A stretch of 64,000 nucleotides of DNA from a virus (IMGVR_UViG_2718218131_000011:1-64000), one strand, 5' to 3'; counted from the stretch's first letter, positions 1 to 46,195 are shown. The notes: a model not told the origin generated them from the sequence alone. Program-made: numbers and translations.

Positions 1-1014
1 ATGAAAACCGCCACTGCGCCGTTACCACCGCTGCGTTCGGTCAAGGTTCTGGACCAGTTGCGTGAGCGCATACGCTACTTGCATTACAGCTTACCAACCG
101 AACAGGCTTATGTCCACTGGGTTCGTGCCTTCATCCGTTTCCACGGTGTGCGTCACCCGGCAACCTTGGGCAGCAGCGAAGTCGAGGCATTTCTGTCCTG
201 GCTGGCGAACGAGCGCAAGGTTTCGGTCTCCACGCATCGTCAGGCATTGGCGGCCTTGCTGTTCTTCTACGGCAAGGTGCTGTGCACGGATCTGCCCTGG
301 CTTCAGGAGATCGGAAGACCTCGGCCGTCGCGGCGCTTGCCGGTGGTGCTGACCCCGGATGAAGTGGTTCGCATCCTCGGTTTTCTGGAAGGCGAGCATC
401 GTTTGTTCGCCCAGCTTCTGTATGGAACGGGCATGCGGATCAGTGAGGGTTTGCAACTGCGGGTCAAGGATCTGGATTTCGATCACGGCACGATCATCGT
501 GCGGGAGGGCAAGGGCTCCAAGGATCGGGCCTTGATGTTACCCGAGAGCTTGGCACCCAGCCTGCGCGAGCAGCTGTCGCGTGCACGGGCATGGTGGCTG
601 AAGGACCAGGCCGAGGGCCGCAGCGGTGTTGCGCTTCCCGACGCCCTTGAGCGGAAGTATCCGCGCGCCGGGCATTCCTGGCCGTGGTTCTGGGTTTTTG
701 CGCAGCACACGCATTCGACCGATCCACGGAGCGGTGTCGTGCGTCGCCATCACATGTATGACCAGACCTTTCAGCGCGCCTTCAAACGTGCCGTAGAACA
801 AGCAGGCATCACGAAGCCCGCCACACCGCACACCCTCCGCCACTCGTTCGCGACGGCCTTGCTCCGCAGCGGTTACGACATTCGAACCGTGCAGGATCTG
901 CTCGGCCATTCCGACGTCTCTACGACGATGATTTACACGCATGTGCTGAAAGTTGGCGGTGCCGGAGTGCGCTCACCGCTTGATGCGCTGCCGCCCCTCA
1001 CTAGTGAGAGGTAG
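1..1014 (+). CDS. intI1: Class 1 integron integrase IntI1 (tyrosine recombinase), complete 337 aa
   Basis: Translation [29 protein letters not shown]... with C-terminal [16 protein letters not shown] recombinase motif matches IntI1 as I recall it; ORF starts at window position 1. Confidence 0.95.
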
Positions 1015-1191
1015 GGCAGCGCAAGTCAATCCTGGCGGATTCACTACCCCTGCGCGAAGGCCATCGGTGCCGCATCGAACGGCCGGTTGCGGAAAGTCCT
1101 CCCTGCGTCCGCTGATGGCCGGCAGCAGCCCGTCGTTGCCTGATGGATCCAACCCCTCCGCTGCTATAGTGCAGTCGGCTTCTGACGTTCA

Positions 1192-1216
1192 GTGCAGCCG
1201 TCTTCTGAAAACGACA
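1192..1216. repeat. 25-bp IRi terminal inverted repeat of class 1 integron
   Basis: GTGCAGCCGTCTTCTGAAAACGACA is the reverse complement of the IRi sequence TGTCGTTTTCAGAAGACGGCTGCAC. Confidence 0.8.
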
Positions 1217-1567
1217 ATGGAGGTGGTAGCCGAGGGTGTGGAAACACCCGACTGCCTTGCGTGGTTGCGGCAGGCGGGTTGCGACACGGTGCAGGGTTTC
1301 CTGTTCGCCAGGCCGATGCCGGCGGCGGCCTTCGTCGGCTTCGTCAACCAATGGAGGAACACCACCATGAACGCCAATGAACCGAGCACCAGTTGCTGCG
1401 TGTGCTGCAAGGAAATCCCGCTCGATGCCGCCTTCACGCCGGAAGGGGCCGAGTACGTGGAGCATTTCTGCGGGCTGGAGTGCTATCAGCGCTTCCAGGC
1501 GCGGGCCAGCACTGCGACCGAAACCAGCGTCAAACCGGACGCTTGTGATTCGCCGCCGCCAGGTTGA
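1217..1567 (+). CDS. tnpM: TnpM / urf2 C-terminal EAL-domain remnant
   Basis: 116-aa [31 protein letters not shown]... starting immediately after IRi, as in Tn21 where In2 interrupts urf2. Confidence 0.75.
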
Positions 1568-1692
1568 GGCATACCCTAACCTGATGTCAGATGCCATGTG
1601 TAAATTGCGTCAGGATAGGATTGAATTTTGAATTTATTGACATATCTCGTTGAAGGTCATAGAGTCTTCCCTGACATTTTGCAGGGAATTCC
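1568..1692 (+). promoter_or_regulatory. res resolution site region of Tn21 family
   Basis: Intergenic segment directly upstream of tnpR containing TGTCAGATGCCATGTGTAAATTGCGTCAGGATAGGA-type subsites; position as in Tn21/Tn501. Confidence 0.55.
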
Positions 1693-2253
1693 ATGACTGG
1701 ACAGCGCATTGGGTATATCAGGGTCAGCACCTTCGACCAGAACCCGGAACGGCAACTGGAAGGCGTCAAGGTTGATCGCGCTTTTAGCGACAAGGCATCC
1801 GGCAAGGATGTCAAGCGTCCGCAACTGGAAGCGCTGATAAGCTTCGCCCGCACCGGCGACACCGTGGTGGTGCATAGCATGGATCGCCTGGCGCGCAATC
1901 TCGATGATTTGCGCCGGATCGTGCAAACGCTGACACAACGCGGCGTGCATATCGAATTCGTCAAGGAACACCTCAGTTTTACTGGCGAAGACTCTCCGAT
2001 GGCGAACCTGATGCTCTCGGTGATGGGCGCGTTCGCCGAGTTCGAGCGCGCCCTGATCCGCGAGCGTCAGCGCGAGGGTATTGCGCTCGCCAAGCAACGC
2101 GGGGCTTACCGTGGCAGGAAGAAATCCCTGTCGTCTGAGCGTATTGCCGAACTGCGCCAACGTGTCGAGGCTGGCGAGCAAAAGACCAAGCTTGCTCGTG
2201 AATTCGGAATCAGTCGCGAAACCCTGTATCAATACTTGAGAACGGATCAGTAA
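1693..2253 (+). CDS. tnpR: Serine resolvase TnpR
   Basis: 186 aa, N-terminal [11 protein letters not shown] catalytic serine motif and C-terminal HTH; Tn21 TnpR-like. Confidence 0.95.
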
Positions 2254-2255
2254 AT

Positions 2256-5222
2256 ATGCCACGTCGTTCCATCCTGTCCGCCGCCGAGCGGGAAAGCCTG
2301 CTGGCGTTGCCGGACTCCAAGGACGACCTGATCCGACATTACACATTCAACGATACCGACCTCTCGATCATCCGACAGCGGCGCGGGCCAGCCAATCGGC
2401 TGGGCTTCGCGGTGCAGCTCTGTTACCTGCGCTTTCCCGGCGTCATCCTGGGCGTCGATGAACTACCGTTCCCGCCCTTGTTGAAGCTGGTCGCCGACCA
2501 GCTCAAGGTCGGCGTCGAAAGCTGGAACGAGTACGGCCAGCGGGAGCAGACCCGGCGCGAGCACCTGAGCGAGCTGCAAACCGTGTTCGGTTTCCGGCCC
2601 TTCACCATGAGCCATTACCGGCAGGCCGTCCAGATGCTGACCGAGCTGGCGATGCAAACCGACAAAGGCATCGTGCTGGCCAGCGCCTTGATCGGGCACC
2701 TGCGGCGGCAGTCGGTCATTCTGCCCGCCCTCAACGCCGTCGAGCGGGCGAGTGCCGAGGCGATCACCCGTGCTAACCGGCGCATCTACGACGCCTTGGC
2801 CGAACCACTGGCGGACGCGCATCGCCGCCGCCTCGACGATCTGCTCAAGCGCCGGGACAACGGCAAGACGACCTGGTTGGCTTGGTTGCGCCAGTCTCCG
2901 GCCAAGCCAAATTCGCGGCATATGCTGGAACACATCGAACGCCTCAAGGCATGGCAGGCACTCGATCTGCCTACCGGCATCGAGCGGCTGGTTCACCAGA
3001 ACCGCCTGCTCAAGATTGCCCGCGAGGGCGGCCAGATGACACCCGCCGACCTGGCCAAATTCGAGCCGCAACGGCGCTACGCCACTCTCGTGGCGCTGGC
3101 CACCGAGGGCATGGCCACCGTCACCGACGAAATCATCGACCTGCACGACCGCATCCTGGGTAAGCTGTTTAACGCTGCCAAGAATAAGCATCAGCAGCAG
3201 TTCCAGGCGTCAGGCAAGGCCATCAACGCCAAGGTACGTCTGTACGGGCGCATCGGTCAGGCGCTGATCGACGCCAAGCAATCAGGCCGCGATGCGTTTG
3301 CCGCCATCGAGGCCGTCATGTCCTGGGATTCCTTTGCCGAGAGCGTCACCGAGGCGCAGAAGCTCGCGCAACCCGATGACTTCGATTTCCTGCATCGCAT
3401 CGGCGAGAGCTACGCCACCCTGCGCCGCTATGCACCGGAATTCCTTGCCGTGCTCAAGCTGCGGGCCGCGCCCGCCGCCAAAAACGTGCTTGATGCCATT
3501 GAGGTGCTGCGCGGCATGAACACCGACAACGCCCGCAAGCTGCCAGCCGATGCACCGACCGGCTTCATCAAGCCGCGCTGGCAGAAACTGGTGATGACCG
3601 ACGCCGGCATCGACCGGCGCTACTACGAACTGTGCGCGCTGTCCGAGTTGAAGAACTCCCTGCGCTCGGGCGACATCTGGGTGCAGGGTTCACGCCAGTT
3701 CAAGGACTTCGAGGACTACCTGGTACCGCCCGAGAAGTTCACCAGCCTCAAGCAGTCCAGCGAATTGCCGCTGGCCGTGGCCACCGACTGCGAACAATAT
3801 CTGCATGAGCGGCTGACGCTGCTGGAAGCACAACTTGCCACCGTCAACCGCATGGCGGCAGCCAACGACCTGCCGGATGCCATCATCACCGAGTCGGGCT
3901 TGAAGATCACGCCGCTGGATGCGGCGGTGCCCGACACCGCGCAGGCGCTGATAGACCAGACAGCCATGGTCCTGCCGCACGTCAAGATCACCGAACTGCT
4001 GCTCGAAGTCGATGAGTGGACGGGCTTCACCCGGCACTTCACGCACTTGAAATCGGGCGATCTGGCCAAGGACAAGAACCTGTTGTTGACCACGATCCTG
4101 GCCGACGCGATCAACCTGGGCCTGACCAAGATGGCCGAGTCCTGCCCCGGCACGACCTACGCGAAGCTCGCTTGGCTGCAAGCCTGGCATACCCGCGACG
4201 AAACGTACTCGACAGCGTTGGCTGAACTGGTCAACGCTCAGTTTCGGCATCCCTTTGCCGGGCACTGGGGCGATGGCACCACATCATCATCGGACGGACA
4301 GAATTTCCGAACCGCTAGCAAGGCAAAGAGCACGGGGCACATCAACCCAAAATATGGCAGCAGCCCAGGACGGACTTTCTACACCCACATCTCCGACCAA
4401 TACGCGCCATTCCACACCAAGGTGGTCAATGTCGGCCTGCGCGACTCAACCTACGTGCTCGACGGCCTGCTGTACCACGAATCCGACCTGCGGATCGAGG
4501 AGCACTACACCGACACGGCGGGCTTCACCGATCACGTCTTCGCCCTGATGCACCTCTTGGGCTTCCGCTTCGCGCCGCGCATCCGCGACCTGGGCGACAC
4601 CAAGCTCTACATCCCGAAGGGCGATGCCGCCTATGACGCGCTCAAGCCGATGATCGGCGGCACGCTCAACATCAAGCACGTCCGCGCCCATTGGGACGAA
4701 ATCCTGCGGCTGGCCACCTCGATCAAGCAGGGCACGGTGACGGCCTCGCTGATGCTCAGGAAACTCGGCAGCTACCCGCGCCAGAACGGCTTGGCCGTCG
4801 CGCTGCGCGAGTTGGGCCGCATCGAGCGCACGCTGTTCATCCTCGACTGGCTGCAAAGCGTCGAGCTACGCCGCCGCGTGCATGCCGGGCTGAACAAGGG
4901 CGAGGCGCGCAATGCGCTGGCCCGTGCCGTGTTCTTCAACCGCCTTGGTGAAATCCGTGACCGCAGTTTCGAGCAGCAGCGCTACCGGGCCAGCGGCCTC
5001 AACCTGGTGACGGCGGCCATCGTGCTGTGGAACACGGTCTACCTGGAGCGTGCGGCGCATGCGTTGCGCGGCAATGGTCATGCCGTCGATGACTCGCTAT
5101 TGCAGTACCTGTCGCCACTCGGCTGGGAGCACATCAACCTGACCGGTGATTACCTATGGCGCAGCAGCGCCAAGATCGGCGCGGGGAAGTTCAGGCCGCT
5201 ACGGCCTCTGCAACCGGCTTAG
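2256..5222 (+). CDS. tnpA: Tn3/Tn21-family transposase TnpA
   Basis: 988-aa ORF directly downstream of tnpR in the same orientation, ending inside the terminal inverted repeat. Confidence 0.95.
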
Positions 5223-5255
5223 CGTGCTTTATTTTCCGTTTTCTGAGACGACCCC
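5218..5255. repeat. 38-bp terminal inverted repeat of Tn21-family transposon
   Basis: CTTAGCGTGCTTTATTTTCCGTTTTCTGAGACGACCCC is the reverse complement of the Tn21 IR GGGGTCGTCTCAGAAAACGGAAAATAAAGCACGCTAAG. Confidence 0.85.
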
Positions 5256-5511
5256 AAGAAGCACGGCGCGGTTTTGCTAAAGTGATGTCTGAGTTTGGCG
5301 AATTTTTGGGGCACGTTGACAAAGCCCTCTCAATCAGTTCAGCAAGGTCCAAAGCATTAACAGCTTCCATGATGAAATAAAAAAAGCCTGGCAAGGAGCC
5401 AGGCTGCACAAAAGAGCGGGTTTGTATTCCGCATCCAATCAATCAAGAAGGAGTATAGCACACAGGTACTGAAGTGAAAAAATGTGATTCGCGATAAACA
5501 AAATATCTACC

Positions 5512-5528
5512 ATTGCTCTAATTGATCG
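5512..5528 (+). promoter_or_regulatory. C1 repressor operator-like site upstream of ref
   Basis: ATTGCTCTAATTGATCG matches the P1 C1 operator consensus ATTGCTCTAATAAATTT at about 13 of 17 positions. Confidence 0.45.
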
Positions 5529-5595
5529 CTATAATTGAGCCGCAGTTTTTGTCAACTACGAAGACGTTGCCATTACTTAACTCCTTGACATCATT

Positions 5596-5621
5596 GGCGG
5601 CCATCAGGCCGCCTTTTTTTT
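5596..5621 (+). terminator. Terminator-like hairpin plus T-tract in the ref leader
   Basis: GGCGGCC-ATCA-GGCCGCC stem-loop followed by eight T residues, ending 6 bp before the ref ATG. Confidence 0.4.
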
Positions 5622-5626
5622 GCCAT

Positions 5627-6187
5627 ATGAAAACAATCGAACAAAAAATTGAACAGCACCGTAAGTGGCAGAAGGCAGCCAGAGAACGAGCGATCGCTCG
5701 GCAACGGGAGAAGTTGGCTGATCCGGCCTGGCGAGAATCTCAATATCAGAAAATGCGGAATACTATCGACCGCCGTATCGCTAAACAGAAAGAGCGCCCA
5801 CCAGCCAGCAAAACGTGGAAAAGCGCGGTAAAAATAAAATCTCGTGGCTTGAAGGGACGAACACCGACGGCGGAGGAGCGGCGCATAGCCAATGCTCTTG
5901 GCGCTCTCCCCTGCATTGCCTGCTATATGCATGGAGTAATATCTGAAGAGGTGTCTCTGCACCATATCTCCGGTCGTACCGCGCCTGGTTGTCACAAAAA
6001 GCAATTGCCACTTTGTAGATGGCACCACCAGCATGCAGCACCGGCTGAAGTAAGAGAAAAATACCCCTGGCTGGTCCCTGTTCATGCCGATGGTGTGGTT
6101 GGAGGCAAGAAAGAATTCACCTTGCTGAACAAGTCAGAGATGGAGTTGCTGGCTGACGCCTATGAGATGGCAAACATAATGCACTAA
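5627..6187 (+). CDS. ref: Recombination enhancement function Ref (HNH endonuclease family)
   Basis: 186 aa starting MKTIEQKIEQHRKWQKAARERA; Cys/His-rich HNH-like core CYMHGV...LHHISGR...CRWHH; recognised as P1 Ref. Confidence 0.85.
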   Translation: MKTIEQKIEQHRKWQKAARERAIARQREKLADPAWRESQYQKMRNTIDRRIAKQKERPPASKTWKSAVKIKSRGLKGRTPTAEERRIANALGALPCIACYMHGVISEEVSLHHISGRTAPGCHKKQLPLCRWHHQHAAPAEVREKYPWLVPVHADGVVGGKKEFTLLNKSEMELLADAYEMANIMH

Positions 6188-6376
6188 TAAATATATTATT
6201 TTTAATCTGAAATAATTGACAACTGACAAGTGACTTCAGTCAGAATCATCACATGCCCGGTACGGATGGATCCCTTTTCAAATATTCCATGGACGGCACA
6301 GTCTGAGTACCGGGCGCTACCTTCAGTTGTATTGCTAAGCCGCCGCTGGTGGCTTTTCTTTTTTATAAGGGGCGCT

Positions 6377-7018
6377 ATGGATAAGAAAATATGCGTTGTT
6401 TCGATGAGCGTCGGCAAACCGGCGTCAATGACTGCCGCATGGATCAACAATGAGCTGATAATGGCTGAGCGGACCAGCTACCCTGAACGCCGCCGCGATA
6501 TGGAACTCCAGCTGCTGCGCGAATTGCGAGAAAAAGAGGAAAAGGGTTTTATCGTGCTGGTGGAAGAGGAAAACAGCTTTATTACGGGTCGAGTTGGCCA
6601 GCGTGTAAGGTTGCGCGATCCCTTCATGAACGGCAGGCCGGTACTAATTGAAGCAATGCAGATTTACAAGGAGCTGGAACGCCAGAAAGCGATCAAGTTA
6701 CCGCGCAAAGAATCCGGCAAATACATCCTCCACCAAAGCATCTTCGATTCCGAACACGACAAAAAAGGCGATGAATTTTTCAACATCAACTGGAGCGAAA
6801 TAACGACAGAGCACGTTCTGTCGTTGTTATGCTGCTTCGCAACGGAATATAACAACGTTGCAAGCGCCGACTACATCAGGGCAATGGCTGGAGAAGTTGA
6901 GGCTCGCCAGGAACCATCGTTACTAAGCCCTCTGATTAACATAATTCGCGGAACCCAATGTCTAGCCGACAAGCGAGTTCCTCAAGGCTTACTTACCGGC
7001 AAAGAAAACTATTTATAA
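6377..7018 (+). CDS. Hypothetical protein at the position of P1 mat
   Basis: 213-aa ORF from MDKKICVV; backbone-like base composition; no recognisable motifs. Confidence 0.4.
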   Translation: MDKKICVVSMSVGKPASMTAAWINNELIMAERTSYPERRRDMELQLLRELREKEEKGFIVLVEEENSFITGRVGQRVRLRDPFMNGRPVLIEAMQIYKELERQKAIKLPRKESGKYILHQSIFDSEHDKKGDEFFNINWSEITTEHVLSLLCCFATEYNNVASADYIRAMAGEVEARQEPSLLSPLINIIRGTQCLADKRVPQGLLTGKENYL

Positions 7019-7047
7019 TTAATTACGTCAGTAGCCAATAGAGATTT

Positions 7048-7080
7048 TTGTTGTGGAACAAAAATATATATTTTACAATC
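7048..7080 (+). promoter_or_regulatory. Putative sigma70 promoter of the two-gene cassette
   Basis: TTGTGG (-35), 17-bp spacer, TACAAT (-10) about 30 bp upstream of the cassette start; GGGGGA ribosome-binding site before the ATG. Confidence 0.3.
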
Positions 7081-7108
7081 TAGTAACTTTGGGTGGGGGA
7101 TTATTACA

Positions 7109-8149
7109 ATGATGAATATTAAGCCGCTGAAAATTAGGAACAAGGTCATGAAGCCTCATAAAGCATTATTAAACCCTGACCTAACCGCAAGGAATGTACT
7201 TACATACAGTCATTGGGATTTTGTCGAACTCTGGTTAAAGCGAAACGAAAAAGATGAGGCTCTTTTTTATTGGGAGCAAGCAAAAGTATTTAATCAGGCG
7301 GCCAATGGTTTACCCAACCAATCAGCCCCACTTTTGCACTATTATTCATTCATGAATGCAGTAAAGGCGTTACTTTCATCTCGCAATATAAACTTCAAAC
7401 AGCATCATGGTGTTGCTAGGGGTGAAAATGCAGCCCAAATTGATAACTTATCTGATATAAAAGTAAAAATAAAAAATGAGGGTATACTTCCGTCTTTTTC
7501 AAAATATATTGACGGCACCTCTCATGAGGGGGTGTACAATATAAAAAACCTTTTTTCTGGATTGCCATATATTCATCGTACATATTGCCTTACTTATGAT
7601 GTAACTGATGATATATTTATTCCACTGATCGATGCTGAGTTCGTTTTGAATGAGTCAGACAATAGCCTGTTTTTCACTGCGATTTTATCCAAGGATTTTC
7701 GGTTCGACACAGTTTTCGACATTCTACCGCCAGCGTTCGAATTGTTTGAAAGAGAAAAGTACAAAATAAAATCAGTAGAATCATTACTTGATTATAATGA
7801 AAATCAATCGTCCAACATGCCGCAATTAACTGAATTTCATAAAAAAATAAGAAGAAATCTTTACTATATCAATGGCGCAGAGACTCTTTGGTATCTCAAA
7901 CGTAAAAACAATCAATCTGAGCATACTTCTGTTTCAATATCGCCATTGGTTATAACCCTAGCAGCTATGCATCGATTAAGTGAGCTATGTCGGTATGACC
8001 CACTTAAGCTAAGACAGTTACTAAATGAAAAAGAAAACTGGATTATTGCTGAATTTATTCAACAATCTCCGTCACAGTTTATAGATGCAATTTCATCTGA
8101 AATTACTGGACACCAATTTCTTATCCCAAACGTAAGGTCTGCTTCTTAA
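7109..8149 (+). CDS. Hypothetical 346-aa protein, cassette component A
   Basis: Long ORF in strongly AT-rich DNA with a good RBS; predicted largely helical, no TM segment; no family recognised by eye (a weak R-x6-H element near residue 250 is the only HEPN-like hint). Confidence 0.7.
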   Translation: MMNIKPLKIRNKVMKPHKALLNPDLTARNVLTYSHWDFVELWLKRNEKDEALFYWEQAKVFNQAANGLPNQSAPLLHYYSFMNAVKALLSSRNINFKQHHGVARGENAAQIDNLSDIKVKIKNEGILPSFSKYIDGTSHEGVYNIKNLFSGLPYIHRTYCLTYDVTDDIFIPLIDAEFVLNESDNSLFFTAILSKDFRFDTVFDILPPAFELFEREKYKIKSVESLLDYNENQSSNMPQLTEFHKKIRRNLYYINGAETLWYLKRKNNQSEHTSVSISPLVITLAAMHRLSELCRYDPLKLRQLLNEKENWIIAEFIQQSPSQFIDAISSEITGHQFLIPNVRSAS

Positions 8150-8658
8150 TGAATATATATATCGCATGCGCTTTAACTCATGTTCCAAGGGAAATTTTCC
8201 ATGAGTACAGTAATTGGATTCACAGCCTTGCAAAAGGTCTATCTCAAAATAACAACGTAAAATATGCTTTGATAAATAGTGACCCAGAATTATCAAAGCG
8301 CCCTGAAAGTAACAAATCTAGACTTTGTTACATTTGGGACAGAGATATGGTTGAGAAATCTGATGTAATAATTGCAGAATGTAGTTTTCCATCAACAGGG
8401 CTAGGAATAGAGTTGCAGATTGCTGAACAGAAGAACATTCCTGTAATCATCTGTTATAAAGATTATGGGATAAATAAAACTAAAACCATTGAATACGTGA
8501 ATCCAGATGAGACTACCCATAATCTACAAGTTGGCGAGGGTTTCATTTCTCATATGGTATTAGGACTACCAAACATCCTTGATGTCATATTATGTAAAGA
8601 TATTGATAACACATGCAGGAAGCTAAAAATACTGTTAGATATGATTAACCATAATTAA
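8149..8658 (+). CDS. Nucleoside 2-deoxyribosyltransferase / DNPH1-like fold protein, cassette component B
   Basis: 169 aa; N-terminal MNIYIACAL strand and PSTGLGIELQIAEQKNIPVI motif resemble the NDT/DNPH1 signature (GLGMELGYA in Lactobacillus NDT, recalled from memory); start codon overlaps the stop of component A (TAATG). Confidence 0.65.
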   Translation: MNIYIACALTHVPREIFHEYSNWIHSLAKGLSQNNNVKYALINSDPELSKRPESNKSRLCYIWDRDMVEKSDVIIAECSFPSTGLGIELQIAEQKNIPVIICYKDYGINKTKTIEYVNPDETTHNLQVGEGFISHMVLGLPNILDVILCKDIDNTCRKLKILLDMINHN

Positions 8659-8688
8659 AAATTAACACCCACTTAAGATGTCTAAACC

Positions 8689-8708
8689 AGCCCGGTATTA
8701 ACCGGGCT
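8689..8708. terminator. Stem-loop between the convergent cassette and lxc-like gene
   Basis: AGCCCGGT-ATTA-ACCGGGCT 8-bp perfect stem; no clear T-tract. Confidence 0.35.
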
Positions 8709-8716
8709 AGACAAAC

Positions 8717-8965
8717 TTAATCAGCATTCAGGAGCAATGCATTATCTATGATGATTTGCTCCCATTCTTCGAATGCCCGGTCGCGGACGCCCTGGGGAAC
8801 GCTGTTAGTTTTGAAATCGACGACCGTACGCCATTTCCCGTCCGGACGGTACATGCGCAGAGCTTTACTTCCCCCCTCCCTGCGCACCTCAACGTTATGC
8901 TTATCAGCAAACTCTTGTAATGCTCGTAGCGTCCCATGCTTTACTGTGTAGTATCGCTTTTTCAA
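8717..8965 (-). CDS. Small protein at the P1 Lxc position
   Basis: 82-aa ORF last in the darB-containing leftward operon; name by position and size only. Confidence 0.45.
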   Translation of the reverse strand: MKKRYYTVKHGTLRALQEFADKHNVEVRREGGSKALRMYRPDGKWRTVVDFKTNSVPQGVRDRAFEEWEQIIIDNALLLNAD

Positions 8966-9402
8966 GTTTTCTCTCCAGCCTGTGCTAAGGCTTCAACTTC
9001 CAAATCGTAAGACTCAAACTCATAGTCCTGGTCGTCAACCTCTTCAGGCACTGGCAGTAAATGCCAGGCTGAGTATATCTGACCATTATCAAAACGCTCC
9101 TGGCTGTAGAGCGTCGCGGCTATGAGCGTCAGCGCCGGGCGGTCATAACGGTAAATTTTGCGAACGTCACGGTCAACGAGACGACCGAAATTACCATAAC
9201 CGCGCTCCAGTAATAATTTTTTAATTTCCGGCCAGTATGGACCATAGCTGCGGTACAGACGGGGATTTTTCAGTAATCGCCCGCGTAGCCCTGACAGGAA
9301 GAAATCAACGTATTCGTCTTCTGTCTTTCCTAACAACGCTGTACGGAGCACCGCCTCAAGATATGTTTTATTCGGTTTTATTGTATCAGATAGTGTGGCC
9401 AT
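8962..9402 (-). CDS. P1 Ulx-like protein
   Basis: 146-aa ORF between darB and the lxc-like gene on the same strand; name by position and size only. Confidence 0.45.
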   Translation of the reverse strand: MATLSDTIKPNKTYLEAVLRTALLGKTEDEYVDFFLSGLRGRLLKNPRLYRSYGPYWPEIKKLLLERGYGNFGRLVDRDVRKIYRYDRPALTLIAATLYSQERFDNGQIYSAWHLLPVPEEVDDQDYEFESYDLEVEALAQAGEKT

Positions 9403-9435
9403 ATTATGCGACGCCCGGCGAACCGGGCGCTCCTG

Positions 9436-12400
9436 TTATGCGTATTGTTGGATGACGGCCAGAACGTCCGCCACGTTGTGTTTTGTCTCGATAATCCACC
9501 AGTTACCCGGGAAATCGCTGTTCTTCGCCTTCGCTGGCAGCCAGCGAGCGCCGAATTTCGCCTTGATTGCGTCTTTCGCACGGAAAAGAATGCCTTTCAT
9601 GCCGGAGGCTTCCTGAAGCCCAAATACCTCGCCAGCGGCGAATTTTGGTGCGTACATCATCTTCAGGTCGGCGGTGGATACGCGATAATTCAGACCAAGA
9701 GACTGAGCTATGCTGGTGGCATCACCCTGTATTGATGATAACTCTTCTTGTTTCTCGTTTCTGGCGGCAATTTCTTCCTCCGTGATGTTGCCAAGGGCCA
9801 GGTTTATCCGATCAGCGTCTGCCTGTTTCTCTTCATCGGTGCGACCGGCAAGTGCCGTGTTAATTCTCTGCAATATCTCCACATGATTCTTGCGCATGCT
9901 GAGCAATTCCGGCGTAACCTCGTTAAGGTCCACCAGCCCAAGAATGGCAAGGTCAGAAAACATTGATACCAGGTTGTAGGTCATGCGATAGCTGAGTTGA
10001 CCATAGGCTGATGGCAACTTCACCGCATCCATTTGATAGGCATCCATAAATTTAGAGCCGTCGTTTACGACATCCGCAATTGCAGGTGTGATTTTCCCTG
10101 TGGTGGCGGCCTCCCTGATTGCTGTTACCCACGATTGAGTCAGCGCGGCGACTGCATGATTCAGATTGGCTTCCCGTTCTGCTGCAATGCGCGCACTTGC
10201 TGCGTCCATTGCCTGCTTGATCTCGTCTTTATTGCTGTAAATGCCAATGGTGCCAAACTGTGCTGTGGTGATCTCATAATCTGACGCCCGGAACTCATTG
10301 GTACCGAAAATGGCATTGGTGACTTCAAGTTCAGAATCCCCGTTACGAGTAGCCCCCTGGCTTGTTTTTTCCGGCATTCTGGCGATCGCATCCGCTATTT
10401 TCTCCTGAATTGCTTCAGGGGATAGCGTATCTCCGTATGACGCGATTACATCGCCATAATTGGAGCCAAACAATTCAACCAGGAATGTTTCTGCCGAACG
10501 GATCTGGCGGTTATTCCCTTCCGACATCATACCAAGCACCCATTTTGCAATTGACGACTTCAGCGCGCCGTCACGGCGATCCGGGTAAATCGCATGCTTC
10601 AGTGGGTCCGTATAGGTACCAACAAAATCAATGCTATAGCCTGACTCTGTAGTCTGAACGCCGTATGAGTCAGTGATTTTGATCATGCCGCGCTGCTGGA
10701 AACGGTAGAAATCGTCACAGGAAATGATGTCGTTAATCCCGGCGATGGAGACGCCACCACTGATTTTCTGCATAACAGCATCTTCATCGGGAGTTACATC
10801 AACCTGTTTATCCAGCGTCTTCACATCCCAGTTACCCGATTTGGTGCCTTTGAAGGTAAAGATGATCTCCACGTCTGCGCGCTGGCTGTCGAAGTCCAGC
10901 GACTTAATGCGAAAGATATCACCGGCACAATCGTAGTATTGGCCTACACGCCATGAGCGATCGCCGATAACAAGGAACTCATTCGCATGGTTAACCAGAT
11001 CAGGATCAACATCCAGAATGCCTTTATTTATTGCATCCTCCACCAGCGGGCGCAGGCGTTTGATATCCGTCGCGGCCTTCTGAGTACGGTTCAATAATTT
11101 CTCATAGCGGGAGATGGCCTGAGAGATATTAGCCTTGCGCTGAATGGCGCTTTTCAACGACGCGCGATACTGTGCTAACAACATACGGTCTGTGTGATGG
11201 ACACTCCCCCAGCGGGCCTTCCAGTCTGCGTTATCCGCTGCCTTGGCCATTGCCGCCTGTTTGAATTTAGCTACCTCGGCGGTGGTCTTTTCAAGTTCCG
11301 CTTTGCTTCGCTCTAATTCAGCGGTAAGTACCTCCACATCCTCGCCAGCTGCGTGCTGCGCCTTGATGTAGTTCTGAAGGTCGATAGTAGCCTGTTCTTT
11401 CTGGCGAGCGCGTTTCGCAGCTTTCGCCTTATCCATTTGAACCTGCATCATTGCCAGACGTTCGCCGTCATCCTTCGCGGTATACATCTGCATTTCGATC
11501 ATGTCATTGGCGTCGGCGTTCTCCATTTCTGACTTATCTGAACGGAGGATATCGGAGATCCAGCCTGCTTTACGCTTCAGCGTCTTCAGTCGGTATTCAT
11601 CGAAAGACCCCTTGCCGCAGTAGTAGTGAACGCGAACGCTTGCACGGTTGGAACCAACTCGGGCACCGCGACCGTTACGCTGTGCGATACTGGCTGGTGT
11701 CCACGGCAACGTCAGGTGGTGGATATCCGTCGTTCCTCGATGCAGGTTGATACCCACCTCTGCCTTTTTGTTGCAGATGATGATCGGAGTCCGGCCCTCC
11801 TGGAAGTCGGCTGCAATCTTTTCCAGACCGCCCAACGACATTTCATTTTGCTGCGCGATATAGGCGTCATACAGAGCCATTTGCTCGTTGTATTTCGCTA
11901 TCTGTGCATCTGTTGGTTCATCCGGTAGCTCTTTCGGCGGTTTAACCGCTTTCAGTTTCTTACCGGTTTTACCTGCCTCGGCAACCGTCTGAGCATTCAG
12001 GATCCCCACCTTTGAAGGTTCAAGGTTTAGAGCATTGCAGATAATGCGCTTGAGCTTCTGGTGCTGCGTTTTTTCATCGGTGAAGATGATTTGCTTACCT
12101 TCCGGGAAAAACTCCTTCAGCGTGGCGATCAGCTTCGCGTATTTCGGCGTAACGGGGTGAGTTACGGTCTGTTCGTCAATGCCAAACCTGGCCAGGCGCT
12201 TATTCACTTCCTGCTCGAACGCTTCCGGAACCTGCAACTGAATAAACTCGCCCTTATCTATCAGGGAGTATTGCGATTGCTGCGTGATTGAATCATCACT
12301 GTCGTCGTCTTCGCTGGTGGCTTGTTTAGGCAAACTGTCCGCCAGCTGCTGCACCGCATCGGCGTACTCCGGCAGGAAACGATAGGTGATCCGGCGATAG

Positions 12401-15400
12401 TACAGGTCCATGTCAGTACATACGCGGTCCATATCCCTGATTATTGAGAAGATCGGACGGGCTTTCTCGTGCTCAATCACGCCGTCTTCATTGACCGAGG
12501 TCGTTACGCCATTGTTGGCTTTTGCCGCCGCTTCCGCCTGCTGACGCAATTCTTCATACGCCGCCAGTTGTTCTTCAGTAAGTGGTGCATCCTGCTGGTG
12601 TTCGTCCAGCTCCGGGATCTCCACGGTATCCTTAACGTCTTCCGCCGTTTTAAGCGTTACCCAGCGATGGAATATACCGCGCAGCGCATCAAGGTTTTCA
12701 AAGCCCACCAGCGCCATTTTTTCTTCAACTTCACCGCTGATTTTCTGTACCGTTTCCAGCCTGGTCTTGCCGAAGAATTTAACGAAGTCATCAGGACCGT
12801 AGATCCCCATGTTCTGCCAGTATTCCTTCGGCAGAACATGAGAAAGCATGTTGTATGCATCGATCGGGGTGTTAACGACTGGCGTTGCAGTCAGGAGAAC
12901 CGGCCCGCGCCCGCCATTCTTTTTCATCAGGTACGCGTTTTTAATTGCCATATCTCGCGCCGATTGCGCCACCGCGCTGGTGGGCAGATAGGCCAGTTGT
13001 GACGCTTCGCGACCATTTTTATAGCTATTGCGGTAGTTGTGACCTTCGTCAGCGATCACACTATCGAAGCCCATATCCTCAAAGTACGGATACTTCTCTG
13101 CTTTTTCGGTGCCGGTATCTGAATACTCCGACAATACCCGGCGACGCGCAGCCTCTTTGCGGTGGGAGTCGGAGTCCATTGCGCTGGCTACGCGCCCGGC
13201 GGCAACGAAGTCATAAAGCATATCCTGTGCATGCTCATCTACGGTGTCATCACGTAGCGGAATGCGGGCGTATTGTTCTTTGGTAAACACGACTGCACGG
13301 TAATTTGAGTGCGGGATCGCGTTCATCCGCGCCGTGATAGTGGCTTCATCTGCCAGCTTAAGAGCATCGCGCATAACTGGAGTGCCATCAGTACCAAGAA
13401 CAGGTTTACCGTTCTCATCGAGCACCGGCACCTGGCGAATCTGATCGCCATCCATCAGCACATCAAGACCGACGAACAGGTAGTTACTGAATGCCTCTTC
13501 ACTCAGGAACTCTTTTGCTTCGTAATACCAGTTTTCCAGCACTGCTTTAGGCACTACATAAGCAGTACGGGTGGAGCGACCGTTCTCATAGTTGAACGCC
13601 TCAAGCGCCAGCGCGGTCGTCGTTTTACCCAGCCCGGTGCCGAAGCCCAGGATGCCGCGCCCATCTTCGGACAGTCGGCGCACCTCGCTATTCTGGTAAT
13701 CAAATGGCTGGCGCTTACCGCTTAATCCCTTCAACCCAAGCGGATCGCCAGAGTGTTCATACGGGATATTGCTATTGAACACATCGTTGTATTTGGCAAC
13801 CAACTCATCGTAGCGATCGTGCGTCTTGATCCACTTATTGAACTGGTCCTCAAGCAGTGCCATCTGCTCGCGGTAGCCGTTCGCCGTCGCGCTATCTTTA
13901 CCACCGATACGCGCACCATTGAGATACTTTTCCAGCTGTGCCGGGAACCCGGTCGCGTTTTCACCTGATTTACGGTCCCACTCATAGCGGATCTCGCCTG
14001 TTTCTTTATCCTTGCGCTGGACGACACCGTATCGGTGCCCGACGAACAGACCATCACCACCGTGATAGGTGTCAGAAACCATTTCGTCGCCTTCCAGCTG
14101 CACTGACTGCACATAGCGCAGATCCGGATAGCCGTTTTCCTGCAAAAACTCCAGAATGACGGAGCGGTCGAACCAACGGCTATTGAGCTTAAAGCGGATA
14201 TTCTCTGCTGGCGTCTTGATGCGCTTCTCTTCGATCGCTGCCAGCTGATTAAGGACGTTGTTCTTTACTGGACCATCGGGGAGCGTGGCGAGAAATTCCT
14301 GTTTTGGAGCTACTATCTCGTTAATGTCGCCGCTGGTGGCGCGGGCGAACGGAACAATCCCGCCATACGGCGAAACCGCAATACCAGGGGTGCTGGCCAA
14401 TAAATTAAGCAACTCTTCATCACTGGCTGGCAGTTCGCCGGTAAACGCAAGGCGGAAATCATCGAGCTGGATTGGATCGCGGGTAAGATCGCTATAGAGA
14501 TAACGCAAGGTGTCCTGATAGCTGGTGGAGTCATAACTTGCGCTGGAATCATGCGTAACCAGATTTCCTGTCAGCTCGTCAGAAATAGTGCCATCCAGCT
14601 TAATTGCACCACGGAAAGCAAACCAAGCGCGCGCACCGCTTCCCGATAATTTAGCTATCGGACCGCGACCGGGGTTACCAAAACGGTCAATCTCTGCCTG
14701 CAAACGGGATACCAGAGAAAGGCGCTGCTGTTCGATTTGTTCAGCACTATGCCCGGCGGCCTTCATATCCTGATATTCAATTAACATCCGGCCAATCATC
14801 GCCCCGCGATACAAGCGTTCACGGTATTTTTCAGGCTGGCTGTTAATCCAGTCCACCAGTTGCACCATATCGTCGCTGATTGATGTGGTGTACTTATCGC
14901 GGACATTTGCCATCTGGGTAAATGTCATGCCGAGACGACCTTCTGTGGTAGTCAGGTTACGCTGAAGAGCCTCCCAGCTATCCGCGCCATAACTGGCAAC
15001 ATCAATCTTCAGCTCCTTCCCGGCATCAGCTTCAATCCAGCGACCACCAGCATATTTTTGCCATACGCCATTAATCAGGCGCATTTCCCCTTCATCAACA
15101 ACATCTGCGGTCGGTGACGGTTCAGCCATATCGAGCAAAGACCAGTCGATACGACTTTCGAAACGATGAATCAGCTTCGCTTTAAGAGCCTGGTTATCAA
15201 TCTGCCCGTCGGCACGAACCTCAATACGCCCCTGGAATCCCTTCTCCTGAGTGCCATGAACAAACCGGCGGCCGTCCTTTTCAAACCACTTGCCAGAAAT
15301 AAACGTTGGCCAAAGCACATTTGCCGATTCAAGAGTGCCTTCATCCACCAGGGGGATTTTCTCAGCCATCTCTGCCGGATGTTTACGCATCAGCACCACA

Positions 15401-16203
15401 TCAACGACCGTACTGGTCCCGTTTGCGTCAAAAGTACCGGTAGGCAAGCGGTGAGCGCCAAGAAATTCAGCTTTACGGGATAGGCGCAGGCGTAACCGCT
15501 TCATGTTTGAACCTGAAACAATGGACGGCGGCACAATCACGCACATGAATCCGCCAGGCTTTATCTTGTCCAACATGCGGAGCATGAAGTAAGACCCCAT
15601 GTCCGTTTCTTCTGCGTAAGGTTTATCGATGTTGCGTGTGTTATCACGACCACCGAACGGAACGTTACCCACCACATGGTCGAATGAATCGTTAGGCGTG
15701 CTTACAGCCAGTTGTTCGAACGGGGAAATCTGTACGCTGTCTTCCGGATGTAACAGCTGGTTTATACGACCGGAAACACTGCTGATCTCAGTCGCGGTCA
15801 TCACCGTGCCAACCGGTTTTGTCTCATTAAAAACGCCGGTGCCCGCCGATGGTTCCAGAGTGTTACCTACGTCCGCGCCGTAGAGCTTCATGATCTCCCA
15901 GACACCTTCAGCTATCGGCTTTGGTGTGTAATATTCGGAGACGGACCCGCCAATGCCGCCTTCACCGGTGTACCCAGCCAGGATCTGGCGCTGTTCATCT
16001 GTCAGTGTCGCGCCGTCCACCAGCGAATTAAGCAAATCTATCGCCTTCTGATTCGCCTCACGGCGCAGTCGGTCATAGCTTTTGCCTTCCACCTTTTCCA
16101 CGCCGTATTTAATCGGCGCTCGGTGAGATGTTATTGCCCTAATGTATTTCAATATTTCGCTGACACTTGAACAGCGAAACACCCCCATAGATAGCTTATT
16201 CAT
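9436..16203 (-). CDS. darB: DarB antirestriction protein (methyltransferase plus helicase domains)
   Basis: 2255-aa ORF, the size I recall for P1 DarB; NVPFGG methyltransferase-like motif and DEGH helicase motif (VIADEGHNYRNS) visible. Confidence 0.85.
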   Translation of the reverse strand: MNKLSMGVFRCSSVSEILKYIRAITSHRAPIKYGVEKVEGKSYDRLRREANQKAIDLLNSLVDGATLTDEQRQILAGYTGEGGIGGSVSEYYTPKPIAEGVWEIMKLYGADVGNTLEPSAGTGVFNETKPVGTVMTATEISSVSGRINQLLHPEDSVQISPFEQLAVSTPNDSFDHVVGNVPFGGRDNTRNIDKPYAEETDMGSYFMLRMLDKIKPGGFMCVIVPPSIVSGSNMKRLRLRLSRKAEFLGAHRLPTGTFDANGTSTVVDVVLMRKHPAEMAEKIPLVDEGTLESANVLWPTFISGKWFEKDGRRFVHGTQEKGFQGRIEVRADGQIDNQALKAKLIHRFESRIDWSLLDMAEPSPTADVVDEGEMRLINGVWQKYAGGRWIEADAGKELKIDVASYGADSWEALQRNLTTTEGRLGMTFTQMANVRDKYTTSISDDMVQLVDWINSQPEKYRERLYRGAMIGRMLIEYQDMKAAGHSAEQIEQQRLSLVSRLQAEIDRFGNPGRGPIAKLSGSGARAWFAFRGAIKLDGTISDELTGNLVTHDSSASYDSTSYQDTLRYLYSDLTRDPIQLDDFRLAFTGELPASDEELLNLLASTPGIAVSPYGGIVPFARATSGDINEIVAPKQEFLATLPDGPVKNNVLNQLAAIEEKRIKTPAENIRFKLNSRWFDRSVILEFLQENGYPDLRYVQSVQLEGDEMVSDTYHGGDGLFVGHRYGVVQRKDKETGEIRYEWDRKSGENATGFPAQLEKYLNGARIGGKDSATANGYREQMALLEDQFNKWIKTHDRYDELVAKYNDVFNSNIPYEHSGDPLGLKGLSGKRQPFDYQNSEVRRLSEDGRGILGFGTGLGKTTTALALEAFNYENGRSTRTAYVVPKAVLENWYYEAKEFLSEEAFSNYLFVGLDVLMDGDQIRQVPVLDENGKPVLGTDGTPVMRDALKLADEATITARMNAIPHSNYRAVVFTKEQYARIPLRDDTVDEHAQDMLYDFVAAGRVASAMDSDSHRKEAARRRVLSEYSDTGTEKAEKYPYFEDMGFDSVIADEGHNYRNSYKNGREASQLAYLPTSAVAQSARDMAIKNAYLMKKNGGRGPVLLTATPVVNTPIDAYNMLSHVLPKEYWQNMGIYGPDDFVKFFGKTRLETVQKISGEVEEKMALVGFENLDALRGIFHRWVTLKTAEDVKDTVEIPELDEHQQDAPLTEEQLAAYEELRQQAEAAAKANNGVTTSVNEDGVIEHEKARPIFSIIRDMDRVCTDMDLYYRRITYRFLPEYADAVQQLADSLPKQATSEDDDSDDSITQQSQYSLIDKGEFIQLQVPEAFEQEVNKRLARFGIDEQTVTHPVTPKYAKLIATLKEFFPEGKQIIFTDEKTQHQKLKRIICNALNLEPSKVGILNAQTVAEAGKTGKKLKAVKPPKELPDEPTDAQIAKYNEQMALYDAYIAQQNEMSLGGLEKIAADFQEGRTPIIICNKKAEVGINLHRGTTDIHHLTLPWTPASIAQRNGRGARVGSNRASVRVHYYCGKGSFDEYRLKTLKRKAGWISDILRSDKSEMENADANDMIEMQMYTAKDDGERLAMMQVQMDKAKAAKRARQKEQATIDLQNYIKAQHAAGEDVEVLTAELERSKAELEKTTAEVAKFKQAAMAKAADNADWKARWGSVHHTDRMLLAQYRASLKSAIQRKANISQAISRYEKLLNRTQKAATDIKRLRPLVEDAINKGILDVDPDLVNHANEFLVIGDRSWRVGQYYDCAGDIFRIKSLDFDSQRADVEIIFTFKGTKSGNWDVKTLDKQVDVTPDEDAVMQKISGGVSIAGINDIISCDDFYRFQQRGMIKITDSYGVQTTESGYSIDFVGTYTDPLKHAIYPDRRDGALKSSIAKWVLGMMSEGNNRQIRSAETFLVELFGSNYGDVIASYGDTLSPEAIQEKIADAIARMPEKTSQGATRNGDSELEVTNAIFGTNEFRASDYEITTAQFGTIGIYSNKDEIKQAMDAASARIAAEREANLNHAVAALTQSWVTAIREAATTGKITPAIADVVNDGSKFMDAYQMDAVKLPSAYGQLSYRMTYNLVSMFSDLAILGLVDLNEVTPELLSMRKNHVEILQRINTALAGRTDEEKQADADRINLALGNITEEEIAARNEKQEELSSIQGDATSIAQSLGLNYRVSTADLKMMYAPKFAAGEVFGLQEASGMKGILFRAKDAIKAKFGARWLPAKAKNSDFPGNWWIIETKHNVADVLAVIQQYA

Positions 16204-16270
16204 TGGTAATCCTTAACAAGTGACTAGTGTTAAATTTCCGTTCAAACACGATGCGAATTATTCTAATTAA

Positions 16271-19001
<2,731 letters not shown>

Positions 19002-19012
19002 CCACCAAAAAT

Positions 19013-19040
19013 AACCCCGGCGGCTGCCGGGGTTCTCGTT
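19013..19040 (+). terminator. Rho-independent terminator after the protease gene
   Basis: AACCCCGG-CGGCTG-CCGGGGTT hairpin followed by a T-rich tract. Confidence 0.5.
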
Positions 19041-19045
19041 AACTA

Positions 19046-19300
19046 TTATCGCCTTCGCCTGCGTGCCATATATTTGCGCACCGCGCGGCGTGGACAATCT
19101 GAAGCGGTTTCTTTCTGCTGCATCAATCTTGCAGCCATGCTCAAAAATGTCAGGCACAGCCGAAGCCCAGCATACAATAGCGGTTCCAGTGGCCACGTCT
19201 CATTGAGCACATATACCGCCATGAAAATCGAGTCGAAAACTATCGCCGCCAGCGATAACTTCATTGTCGAAAGTCGGCGGAGCTGCCGGAGTTTATTCAT
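19046..19300 (-). CDS. Small membrane protein downstream of lyz
   Basis: 84-aa ORF with two hydrophobic segments and a basic C-terminus, co-oriented with lyz. Confidence 0.35.
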   Translation of the reverse strand: MNKLRQLRRLSTMKLSLAAIVFDSIFMAVYVLNETWPLEPLLYAGLRLCLTFLSMAARLMQQKETASDCPRRAVRKYMARRRRR

Positions 19301-19850
19301 TGACCGGCCCCGTCAGGCAAAGCTGGCGTTCTTTTTCACGGCGAATCTTTAACCCGGGCAGGGGGACGCCGTTACTGTTCACAAAATCAGGGAGATGGTT
19401 ACACATATTCACCCATTCCCCTTTCTGCGCCCACTTGTGGATGGACGTTTCGACTCGCATGCCTCGCGCTTTGCTGTAGTAGGTCCGTAAACTATTGCAT
19501 CCCATATTGAATGCCGCGCTTGTCATTGCGCTGAAGGCATTATCGGGCATGTCTTTGCCCCGGAAGTGCTGATTAATGCAGCGTTCAGCGATCAGGATAT
19601 TCTTTTCCCAATCAGCGGCGATTTGCTGGTCGGTTTTTCGCACGCCTGGCGTTACCCCGTGTGTATTACCAATCCCGTCAGTCCATACACCCGCCGGGCA
19701 CATGTATGGGTCACGTCGGCAACCTTCAGCGTTTCCGATAAGCTCAAGCCCCGCCTGGTTGGTTCGCACATTGCCATTACCCATCACGATGGTAATCATC
19801 ACCGCGATAGCGCAAATTGCACCGCCTCCTGCGGCTGTTTTTCCCTTCAT
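19293..19850 (-). CDS. lyz: SAR endolysin Lyz
   Basis: 185 aa from MKGKTAAGGGAICAIAVMITIVMG (signal-anchor-release N-terminus) followed by a T4-lysozyme-like domain; size equals P1 Lyz. Confidence 0.85.
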   Translation of the reverse strand: MKGKTAAGGGAICAIAVMITIVMGNGNVRTNQAGLELIGNAEGCRRDPYMCPAGVWTDGIGNTHGVTPGVRKTDQQIAADWEKNILIAERCINQHFRGKDMPDNAFSAMTSAAFNMGCNSLRTYYSKARGMRVETSIHKWAQKGEWVNMCNHLPDFVNSNGVPLPGLKIRREKERQLCLTGPVNE

Positions 19851-20019
19851 AAAGACCTCATAAGCGAATTTTTTACGCTCCAGGACAAATACCCATTCAC
19901 AGTCAATACCGACTGACTCGATCCCTTTAGAAGGCACAGGATAATGCAAATCACTTGTTAGCTACGTTTCAAAGATATACATTATTGCTCTAATCATTTT
20001 ATTTTATTAGGTAAGATAA

Positions 20020-20508: not shown

Positions 20509-20741
20509 GAGGGCTGAAAGTTGCTCGATTACTTAAAAATAACTTTACCTAATTGGTGTAAAAAAATGGGCGCAACAAAGCGCCCCAACAATAGAGTTTC
20601 AAATTAATAAAAGGGTAATAAATAACATGAAGTTAAATTGAGAAGAGGCAATTTTATTGCCTCTTCAAAGGTGGCATGAGGGTGCCACCTATATGCGGGC
20701 AGTGACATCACTCCCTTCCCGCATATTCTTACCTACCAAAA

Positions 20742-21854: not shown

Positions 21855-22560
21855 TTTTTTGCCCTTTAGATTGAACTTTTCAGTAGAAAAGAGGTCACTG
21901 CGGACAAATGTTTATCTTTTTTGGATTCGTGTTTCAAGTTTTGCAAATAAAAATCAAGGTATTTTTGTGATCAAAATCACAAATAATAACCTTGAAAACC
22001 CAATGGACTATTAGAAAAATCTCAATTCACAGAATAAAAATTGACAAAATAGAACAAAACACAATCAACAATAAGCACAAAAGACAAACAATTAAATTAG
22101 CACAAAAATAATAACTGCAAAAATAGATAGCCTGTTAATTAATAGGGTTTTAATGGATGTGGATTTGAAATCTACTTAAAAAGTAGAGTCAAATTAATTA
22201 CTGTCGATTGGGTATTAAACTGAATCTATATTGTGAGAGTTAAAGACGATGTGTTTTAGTTATACATGTTATTCCCTAAAATGGAGTAGTCTCATCGAAT
22301 TCTGATTAATAACGAGCTAAGCCAATTCATTTTAGTATGTGTATATCTTTACCCTCTGAATATGCAATGACGAAGAGATATTAAACAATATGTAGCTTCA
22401 GGATTGACTCTGGAAGAATTAAAAGATCGGCTAAAGTGTTCAATATGTGGTGAGCGAAACGCAAAAATTAAAATTTTTTGATCTAACATATTAGGCAATA
22501 GCTTGCTTCCATAACCTAAAGCAAGCCACTACGCGTTTACTTTAAGTACACAATTAACAT
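21855..22560 (-). promoter_or_regulatory. AT-rich regulatory region upstream of the porin gene
   Basis: About 700 bp without ORFs, extremely AT-rich, with TTTGAAATCTAC-type elements resembling OmpR boxes of ompC. Confidence 0.35.
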
Positions 22561-44776: not shown

Positions 44777-44832
44777 TTAACAGATTCTACGAGTTGTCAT
44801 TTGTGACAGTATGCTCGCAATCGTAGCGATTA

Positions 44833-45372: not shown

Positions 45373-45375
45373 AAA

Positions 45376-46178: not shown

Positions 46179-46195
46179 TCTGCTCTAATAAATTT
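46179..46195 (+). promoter_or_regulatory. C1 operator-like site upstream of the c4-icd-ant region
   Basis: TCTGCTCTAATAAATTT matches the consensus ATTGCTCTAATAAATTT at about 15 of 17 positions. Confidence 0.55.

Follow-up and report, generated by a model that had tools for sequence, protein, structure and literature searches.

A Tn21 transposon with a class 1 integron in the c8 gene of a P1-like phage-plasmid

We describe the arrangement of a 64,000-nucleotide (nt) stretch of viral DNA (IMGVR_UViG_2718218131_000011:1-64000; the whole of this stretch is hereafter the window), in which the right-hand part of Tn21, the well-known transposon for resistance to mercury and antibiotics, including the integrase end of a class 1 integron, adjoins the backbone of a phage-plasmid related to bacteriophage P1. 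We consider it highly probable that Tn21, with its integron, transposed into c8, a small gene of the phage-plasmid. In terms of mechanism, Tn21 would have entered codon 63 of c8 in a P1-like element of the IncY type by ordinary replicative transposition of the Tn3 family; its arrival would have duplicated the 5 base pairs (bp) AAGAA, and the integron would have been carried along within the urf2 gene of the transposon.

The transposon and its junction with P1 DNA

Positions 1-5255 of the window differ from the Tn21 of R100 (NC_002134.1, 14476-19730), the plasmid on which Tn21 was defined, by three mismatches at nt 95, 627 and 1559 (5252/5255, 99.94%). Because the differences are so few, and because the integron lies at the Tn21-specific position in urf2, we take the element, on its sequence, to be Tn21 proper and not a mere relative. 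The likeness to the copy on R100 (also NR1) extends to the point of integron insertion (the integron-end repeat IRi followed by ATGGA), the order res-tnpR-tnpA and the 38-bp terminal repeat. The differences are that R100 has an arginine at residue 32 of the integrase (R32), a plain PcW cassette promoter, its own residue in tnpM and the integron In2 with a single aadA1 cassette; in the window the integrase has a proline (P32), the promoter has an extended -10 box, the tnpM residue is likewise a proline, and the cassette array is probably another one.

The transposition module is full length and all in one orientation. To the right of the integron lies the C-terminal remnant of urf2, known as tnpM (1217-1567, + strand), an open reading frame (ORF) of 116 codons comprising the C-terminus of an EAL domain and DUF3330 (PF11809, 129 bits, with the tail of PF00563; the NCBIfam matches are to the C-terminal part of EAL phosphodiesterases); a single residue differs from R100, a serine to proline change that follows from nt 1559. 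It is succeeded by positions 1568-1692, 5' of tnpR and the same as R100 Tn21 throughout, which we take from established knowledge of Tn21 to be the res region (resolution site). Then come tnpR (1693-2253, + strand), coding for a serine resolvase of 186 amino acids (aa) recovered by serine-recombinase profiles, and tnpA (2256-5222, + strand), coding for the full-length Tn3-family transposase of 988 aa (NF033527, 1329 bits); both genes are identical to those of R100. The module ends with IRtnp (5218-5255, - strand), the 38-bp terminal inverted repeat at the tnp end, which matches exactly and occurs once in the window, with no copy expected by chance. Since the module is essentially identical to the functional Tn21 of R100, it should, judging from its sequence, still transpose and resolve.

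Homology to P1 starts exactly at position 5256, equivalent to P1 nt 1705, directly after the last base of IRtnp, and the guanine plus cytosine (G+C) content drops across position 5255 from about 0.63 to about 0.46. A preliminary description of this DNA had spoken of a Tn21-family transposon with a class 1 integron whose complete transposition module and terminal repeat abut P1 DNA; both statements are borne out, with the family now narrowed to Tn21 itself. It had further proposed that the DNA on either side of 5255/5256 be compared with P1, and this comparison finds the right side to be of the P1 family, collinear for 58.7 kb, and the disrupted gene to be c8. The relevant P1 genes are cra (207-428), cre (436-1467), c8 (1518-1829) and ref (2077-2637), and the insertion point falls on the second base of codon 63 of the 103 codons of c8, at P1 nt 1705-1709. 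In the window IRtnp is followed by AAGAAGCA, in which AAGAA (5256-5260) is the right copy of the target-site duplication, and the annotation of P1 together with the translations identifies 5256-5380 (+ strand) as the 3' remnant of c8, codons 63-103. The ref gene (5627-6187, + strand) starts 371 bp downstream of the junction; it is intact and codes for the RecA-dependent nuclease Ref (186 aa), as judged from its alignment with P1 Ref, the Ref family in the annotation of sibling records and a match of PF16786 to an identical protein. Thus, the preliminary placement just upstream of ref holds, and its companion statement, that cra and cre of P1 are what stood there, does not: it is c8 that is split, and cra and cre are not displaced. 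An insertion at cra/cre is ruled out by the P1 coordinates, which put the break in c8, and by the sibling plasmid described below, which keeps both of those genes intact.

The c8 gene sits between cre and ref, and the P1 GenBank record notes it as 'establishment of lysogeny, putative'. Going by this annotation, an infecting element that lacks c8 may establish lysogeny less readily, and plasmid maintenance should be unaffected. The junction also gives rise to a hybrid ORF of 74 aa (5156-5380), which starts in the tail of tnpA, runs through IRtnp and continues in frame into the C-terminus of c8; it had no family match in the profile searches and was set aside as a mechanical ORF and not a genuine gene.

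The other transposon end in a sibling plasmid

The attI1 site, the cassettes, the mer arm, the terminal repeat at the mer end (IRmer) and the second copy of the duplication all lie outside the window. The evidence from that side comes from the sibling plasmid pZ1323CEC0001-2 (NZ_CP148508.1), an IncY plasmid of a South Korean chicken Escherichia coli isolate, which shows one mismatch to the window over the 18 kb of positions 2001-20000 and is 100% identical at the right junction. It and its relatives have the c8::Tn21 junction and one backbone lineage, that of Ref, Mat, the YaaC island and DarB, in common with the window; it has other bases at nt 627 and 1559 and a sul1-type integron, and in the right half its backbone diverges, the best matches for window positions 40000-64000 not including it.

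The left side of Tn21 in pZ1323CEC0001-2 has intact cra and cre, then the 5' part of c8, then AGGAAGAA directly before IRmer. The left junction thus reads ...GAGGAAGAA followed by GGGGGCACCTC (IRmer) or, in a longer reading, GAGGAAGAA followed by GGGGGCACCTCAG..., which is IRmer with merR after it. P1 has a single AAGAA at 1705-1709. Hence, as the sibling has the 5' part of c8 ending in AAGAA before IRmer, the window has IRtnp followed by AAGAA, and P1 has just one copy, AAGAA is the 5-bp target duplication expected of a Tn21 insertion, with its second copy read from the sequence of the sibling. The other end and the 5-bp duplication, for which the preliminary description had suggested a search to the left, are accordingly both found in this plasmid, with IRmer beside the 5' part of c8.

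We also reconstructed the empty site by joining the left flank of the sibling (300 bp) to the right flank of the window, minus one AAGAA. The resulting 595 bp match nine Tn21-free P1-like contigs with one or two substitutions and no insertions or deletions (indels), and these nine contigs share with the window both the Ref protein and the genes around it. As the reconstructed site agrees with an uninterrupted c8 without indels, the insertion is, by this sequence comparison, a clean one in which no backbone was lost.

These observations bear on a different origin of the arrangement, namely that the resistance region was gained by homologous or insertion sequence (IS)-mediated recombination through a cointegrate and not by transposition of Tn21 into c8. 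P1-like plasmids do gain resistance regions through IS26 (PMC6906374; PMC9600943), and the integron side and the tnp side of the element in the window have different nearest relatives. However, the backbone starts at the last base of the 38-bp repeat, the sibling supplies the IRmer end with the 5-bp duplication, and the empty site is restored without indels; recombination accounts for an exchange of arms inside Tn21 but not for the junction with P1. Hence, we regard it as a very improbable source of the junction.

Still less probable, in our view, is an assembly chimera in which a Tn21 copy of some other replicon was fused to a P1-like plasmid. Many strains hold several copies of Tn21 and intI1, and the start of the window at the ATG of intI1 could be a record edge; against this, an identical 100-bp junction occurs in three complete plasmids and two complete assemblies from other countries and independent projects. 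We therefore retain the transposition of Tn21 into c8 as the origin of the arrangement.

The integron and its probable cassettes

The portion of the integron visible in the window comprises intI1, the cassette promoter Pc and IRi. The integrase gene intI1 (1-1014, + strand) codes for a class 1 integron integrase of 337 aa, which the integron-integrase equivalog NF011946 matches over its full length (797 bits against a cut-off of 435), in agreement with the preliminary statement that intI1 begins at window position 1. Residues 32 and 39 of its translation mark it as the P32/H39 variant, and the gene is the same as the R100 copy save at nt 95 and 627, the latter difference being silent. Nt 95, which is a G in R100 and there gives the plain PcW, changes R32 of IntI1 to P32 and at once, on the opposite strand, brings a TGG before the -10 box of Pc. 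A regular-expression scan places Pc within intI1 at 88-116 (- strand), as TGGACA-N17-TAAGCT with the TGG directly 5' of the -10 box, and on this sequence pattern we read the promoter as present in the window. We presume this variant to be PcW with an extended TGN -10; the naming of Pc variants reportedly goes back to Jove et al. in 2010. Any cassettes directly to the left of the window would be driven by this Pc.

The integron ends with IRi (1192-1216, - strand), a 25-bp inverted repeat that matches exactly and occurs once in the window, with none expected by chance. It is followed by ATGGA (1217-1221), the right one of the two 5-bp repeats between which the integron lies in urf2. The far end of the integron in pHI1B-o111, in one of the Canadian and UK pig plasmids treated further below and in pZ1323CEC0001-2 reads GGCATGGA followed by IRt, that is, ATGGA|IRt. 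By this sequence comparison, in which the left ATGGA copy comes from the related records, the integron is at the canonical Tn21-specific position in urf2.

Position 1 of the window coincides exactly with the A that opens the intI1 start codon, which hints at a source record cut or rotated there and not at a random point. If that record is circular, the cassettes would sit at its far end.

For the content of the array we turned to the nearest public relatives of the left part of the window. Twelve PLSDB records are 100% identical to positions 1-1700, and among them is p2017.02.03CC_1 (NZ_AP027749.1), with a complete 22.7-kb Tn21, a sul3-type array and a right arm differing from that of the window by one single-nucleotide polymorphism in 5255 bp. 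Three further records (L026-L028) have all three variant bases of the window (nt 95, 627 and 1559); together with p2017.02.03CC_1 they share the window haplotype (two of these four are among the 12), and all four carry dfrA12-gcuF-aadA2-cmlA1-aadA1-qac-IS440-sul3. The tnpM-remnant protein is common in public assemblies, and the loci returned for it, L026-L028 among them, carry this same array. The corresponding region of pZ1323CEC0001-2, in which we looked for the cassette array that the preliminary description had expected to the left of the window, does hold one, dfrA12-gcuF-aadA2-qacEdelta1-sul1, together with chrA, IS6100, mph(A), IS26 and mer. By analogy with these relatives, the first cassettes are very likely dfrA12-gcuF-aadA2, and the full array is most probably dfrA12-gcuF-aadA2-cmlA1-aadA1-qacL followed by IS440-sul3. 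The element is, on the same grounds, likely to confer multiresistance. We think it unlikely that the integron is In2 with its aadA1 cassette: nt 95 gives the P32/extended -10 form, unlike R100, and the copies with this identical haplotype have sul3-type arrays.

The two sides of the transposon point to separate sources. The integron side, with nt 95, 627 and 1559, matches the sul3-type Tn21 copies, and the tnp side agrees in full with the c8 lineage, whose sibling has the sul1 type; the switch between the two sets of relatives falls within 1559-2001, an interval that contains res. As the nearest relatives to the left and to the right of res differ, the sequence suggests that arms were exchanged between Tn21 copies at or near this site. 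Such exchange at res is a known behaviour of Tn21 elements.

Rearranged relatives and the left arm

Five public records have the 100-bp junction. Three are PLSDB plasmids of chicken isolates from South Korea (pZ1323CEC0001-2, pZ1323CEC0006-2 and CP148475); the other two belong to RefSeq E. coli, one being the chromosome of PK8241 (chicken, Pakistan) and the other the 271-kb plasmid of E3 (poultry, China). Exact-junction scans of IMG/VR, the GTDB representative genomes and the JGI metagenome contigs returned no matches, and PLSDB and RefSeq E. coli held no record covering at least 80% of window positions 1-8000.

The three South Korean plasmids and the PK8241 record have an IS26 inversion or truncation in tnpR. 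In pZ1323CEC0001-2 an IS26 lies in tnpR, the integron segment is inverted and the backbone is split; pZ1323CEC0006-2 and the PK8241 chromosome have IS26 truncations. The E3 plasmid has IS4321 in IRtnp, beside the tnpA end, and is fused to a large plasmid. The window is the only copy of the c8 junction that we met with tnpR, res, tnpM, IRi and intI1 all uninterrupted and, because tnpR to intI1 is intact in it alone among the junction copies, its arm looks like the ancestral, unrearranged arrangement.

The record of the PK8241 chromosome (NZ_CP080139.1, 4.99-5.01 Mb) bears the c8::Tn21 junction and 12 kb or more of P1-like DNA, joined via IS26 to a truncated iron ABC permease gene beside hemL. 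This suggests that a phage-plasmid, whole or in part, was integrated there via IS26.

Three points weigh against the favoured reading: the absence from the window itself of everything from attI1 to IRmer and the left duplication copy, as set out above; the divergence of the candidate contexts after aadA2 into the sul1 type of the sibling and the sul3 type of the best matches; and the rearrangement of all five junction records, which lowers confidence in an intact left arm here. The last of these lends some weight to the view that the window holds a stranded right arm of Tn21, with the cassettes, mer and IRmer deleted, inverted or replaced via IS26 or another IS and with the P1 backbone possibly split, as the rearranged junction records exemplify; further, the element most often found next to resistance genes in P1-like phage-plasmids is IS26 (PMC9600943). 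On the other hand, tnpR, res, tnpM, IRi and intI1 are uninterrupted in the window and near to R100 (3/5255 differences), and the backbone is collinear for 58.7 kb. On balance we think a stranded arm unlikely, if to be taken seriously, and continue to favour a Tn21 that transposed into c8, with a left arm that would be intact.

Other Tn21 insertions between c8 and mat

A search with Tn21 and the adjacent backbone as the query, in which insertions elsewhere in P1 would not rank, recovered further insertions close by. In pHI1B-o111 a Tn21 lies in ref, with the duplication TATCA at window-equivalent positions 5744-5748. In Canadian and UK pig plasmids it lies in mat, with the duplication AGCTT (window-equivalent 6574-6578), and p2017.02.03CC_1 also has it in mat, with the duplication AACAA (window-equivalent 6446-6450). 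In the window, mat (6377-7018, + strand), the gene for maturation control, is intact, collinear with P1 to nt 3468 and annotated in the sibling records. Together with AAGAA in c8 there are thus four independent Tn21 insertions within 1.3 kb, with complete copies at the other three sites. In all four the mer end points toward cre and the tnp end toward mat, an agreement in orientation for which chance alone would give 1 in 8. Among these, p2017.02.03CC_1 resembles the window in the orientation of Tn21 relative to the P1 genes and has a complete element from mer to tnpA; it differs in that its insertion in mat is an independent one and that the host is a 162-kb mosaic, IncHI1B by MOB-suite, with a P1-derived segment.

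It is conceivable, though doubtful given that the search was biased toward this segment, that the 1.3 kb spanning c8, ref and mat is a preferred landing site of Tn21 with a preferred orientation; we offer this as a lead only. If true, it would suggest that the transposase chooses its targets, or that selection strongly favours insertions leaving the phage-plasmid viable, and it would make the segment a foreseeable gateway by which multiresistance enters a transducing phage.

Published P1-like elements and phage transfer

The c8::Tn21 arrangement is real, ordinary and already in public records, and integron-bearing P1-like phage-plasmids have been published. Pfeifer et al. 2022 (PMC9600943) report 11 P1-like phage-plasmids (P1 subgroup 1) with class 1 IntI1 integrons, in which arrays with dfrA12 and aadA2 are common and the resistance genes sit at few loci, with a Ref-family gene among the neighbours. 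Likewise, Venturini et al. 2019 (PMC6906374) describe pTZ20_1P, a P1-like plasmid with a sul3-type integron adjoining a Tn21 end. The portions of these two reports at hand stress IS26-bounded regions and, unlike our case, do not single out the insertion of a whole transposon in c8 with its target duplication.

Being a stable plasmid as well as a phage, a P1-type element could spread a multiresistance transposon that it carries with no need for contact between cells, a concern already on record for P1-like phage-plasmids bearing class 1 integrons (PMC9600943). The same report has resistance-bearing phage-plasmids as inducible and able to convert new hosts, and notes that large insertions can surpass what the capsid packages (PMC9600943). 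For the present element we estimate a backbone of about 88 kb, if the third beyond the window is P1-like, to which a Tn21 of the type in p2017.02.03CC_1 (22.7 kb) would add about 23 kb, giving about 111 kb. A P1 headful is roughly 105-115 kb. The estimated size is thus near the P1 packaging limit and packaging may be strained; the 'transducing' of the preliminary description is therefore best read as putative for this element. Any genome longer than one headful would forgo terminal redundancy and be transferred poorly. The window opens no new mechanism; what it adds is a clean, unrearranged example of c8::Tn21, a lineage otherwise known only in IS-scrambled form from poultry E. coli of Asia, together with the exact point of insertion and the hint of repeated hits in c8-ref-mat.

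The P1-like backbone and its variable slots

Positions 5256-64000 of the window are collinear with P1 nt 1705-67104 (58.7 kb) at 95-98% identity. ORFs of P1 length are present for darB (2255 aa), the portal protein (569 aa), pro, lysozyme, ssb, ddrB, darA, sit, the tube and sheath proteins and the major capsid protein, as well as for ant, kilA, repL, parB, parA and repA. Within the replication and partition set, repL (48754-49599), parB (55894-56895), parA (56912-58108) and repA (58666-59526) were each identified as ORFs of P1 length at the collinear position. The c4-ant immunity region and the head, tail and lysis genes also fall within the visible backbone, and the siblings are typed IncY. 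To judge from these sequences, the visible backbone looks like a complete and apparently intact part of a P1-type phage-plasmid. The genes c1 and pacAB and the lox-cre region map to P1 nt 67105-94800 and 1-1704, beyond the window, and are present in the sibling.

The collinearity is broken just at the P1 slots res-mod, isaA-IS1-isaB, the tail-fibre C segment, simABC and rlfAB, which are already known to vary among P1-like elements (PMC9603915). At 7019-8716 the EcoP1I res-mod genes of P1 are replaced by a two-gene insert of low G+C content (0.34-0.37), which comprises a gene for a YaaC-like protein (7109-8149, + strand; PF14175, 156 bits) and an overlapping ORF of 169 aa (8149-8658, + strand) whose match to nucleoside 2-deoxyribosyltransferase is weak and stays below threshold (22 bits; cut-off 28.8). 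The same slot in other P1-like plasmids holds SIR2, RelA/SpoT or DUF2971 genes, and the YaaC-like pair is common in P1-like contigs. When the cargo ORFs of the variable slots, this pair included, were scanned with PADLOC, none matched, and a literature search on YaaC and phage defence found nothing relevant; the pair may be an undescribed defence module.

At 20509-22372 the place of isaA-IS1-isaB is taken by a gene coding for a Gram-negative porin, full length at 370 aa (20742-21854, - strand; PF00267, 495 bits), possibly a lysogenic-conversion or receptor-masking gene. Finally, at 44805-46180 the simABC superimmunity slot is replaced by two genes on the - strand, coding for a DUF5384 protein (44833-45372) and a small protein (45376-45897) with matches to TraT and glycine-zipper families, both below the Pfam cut-offs.

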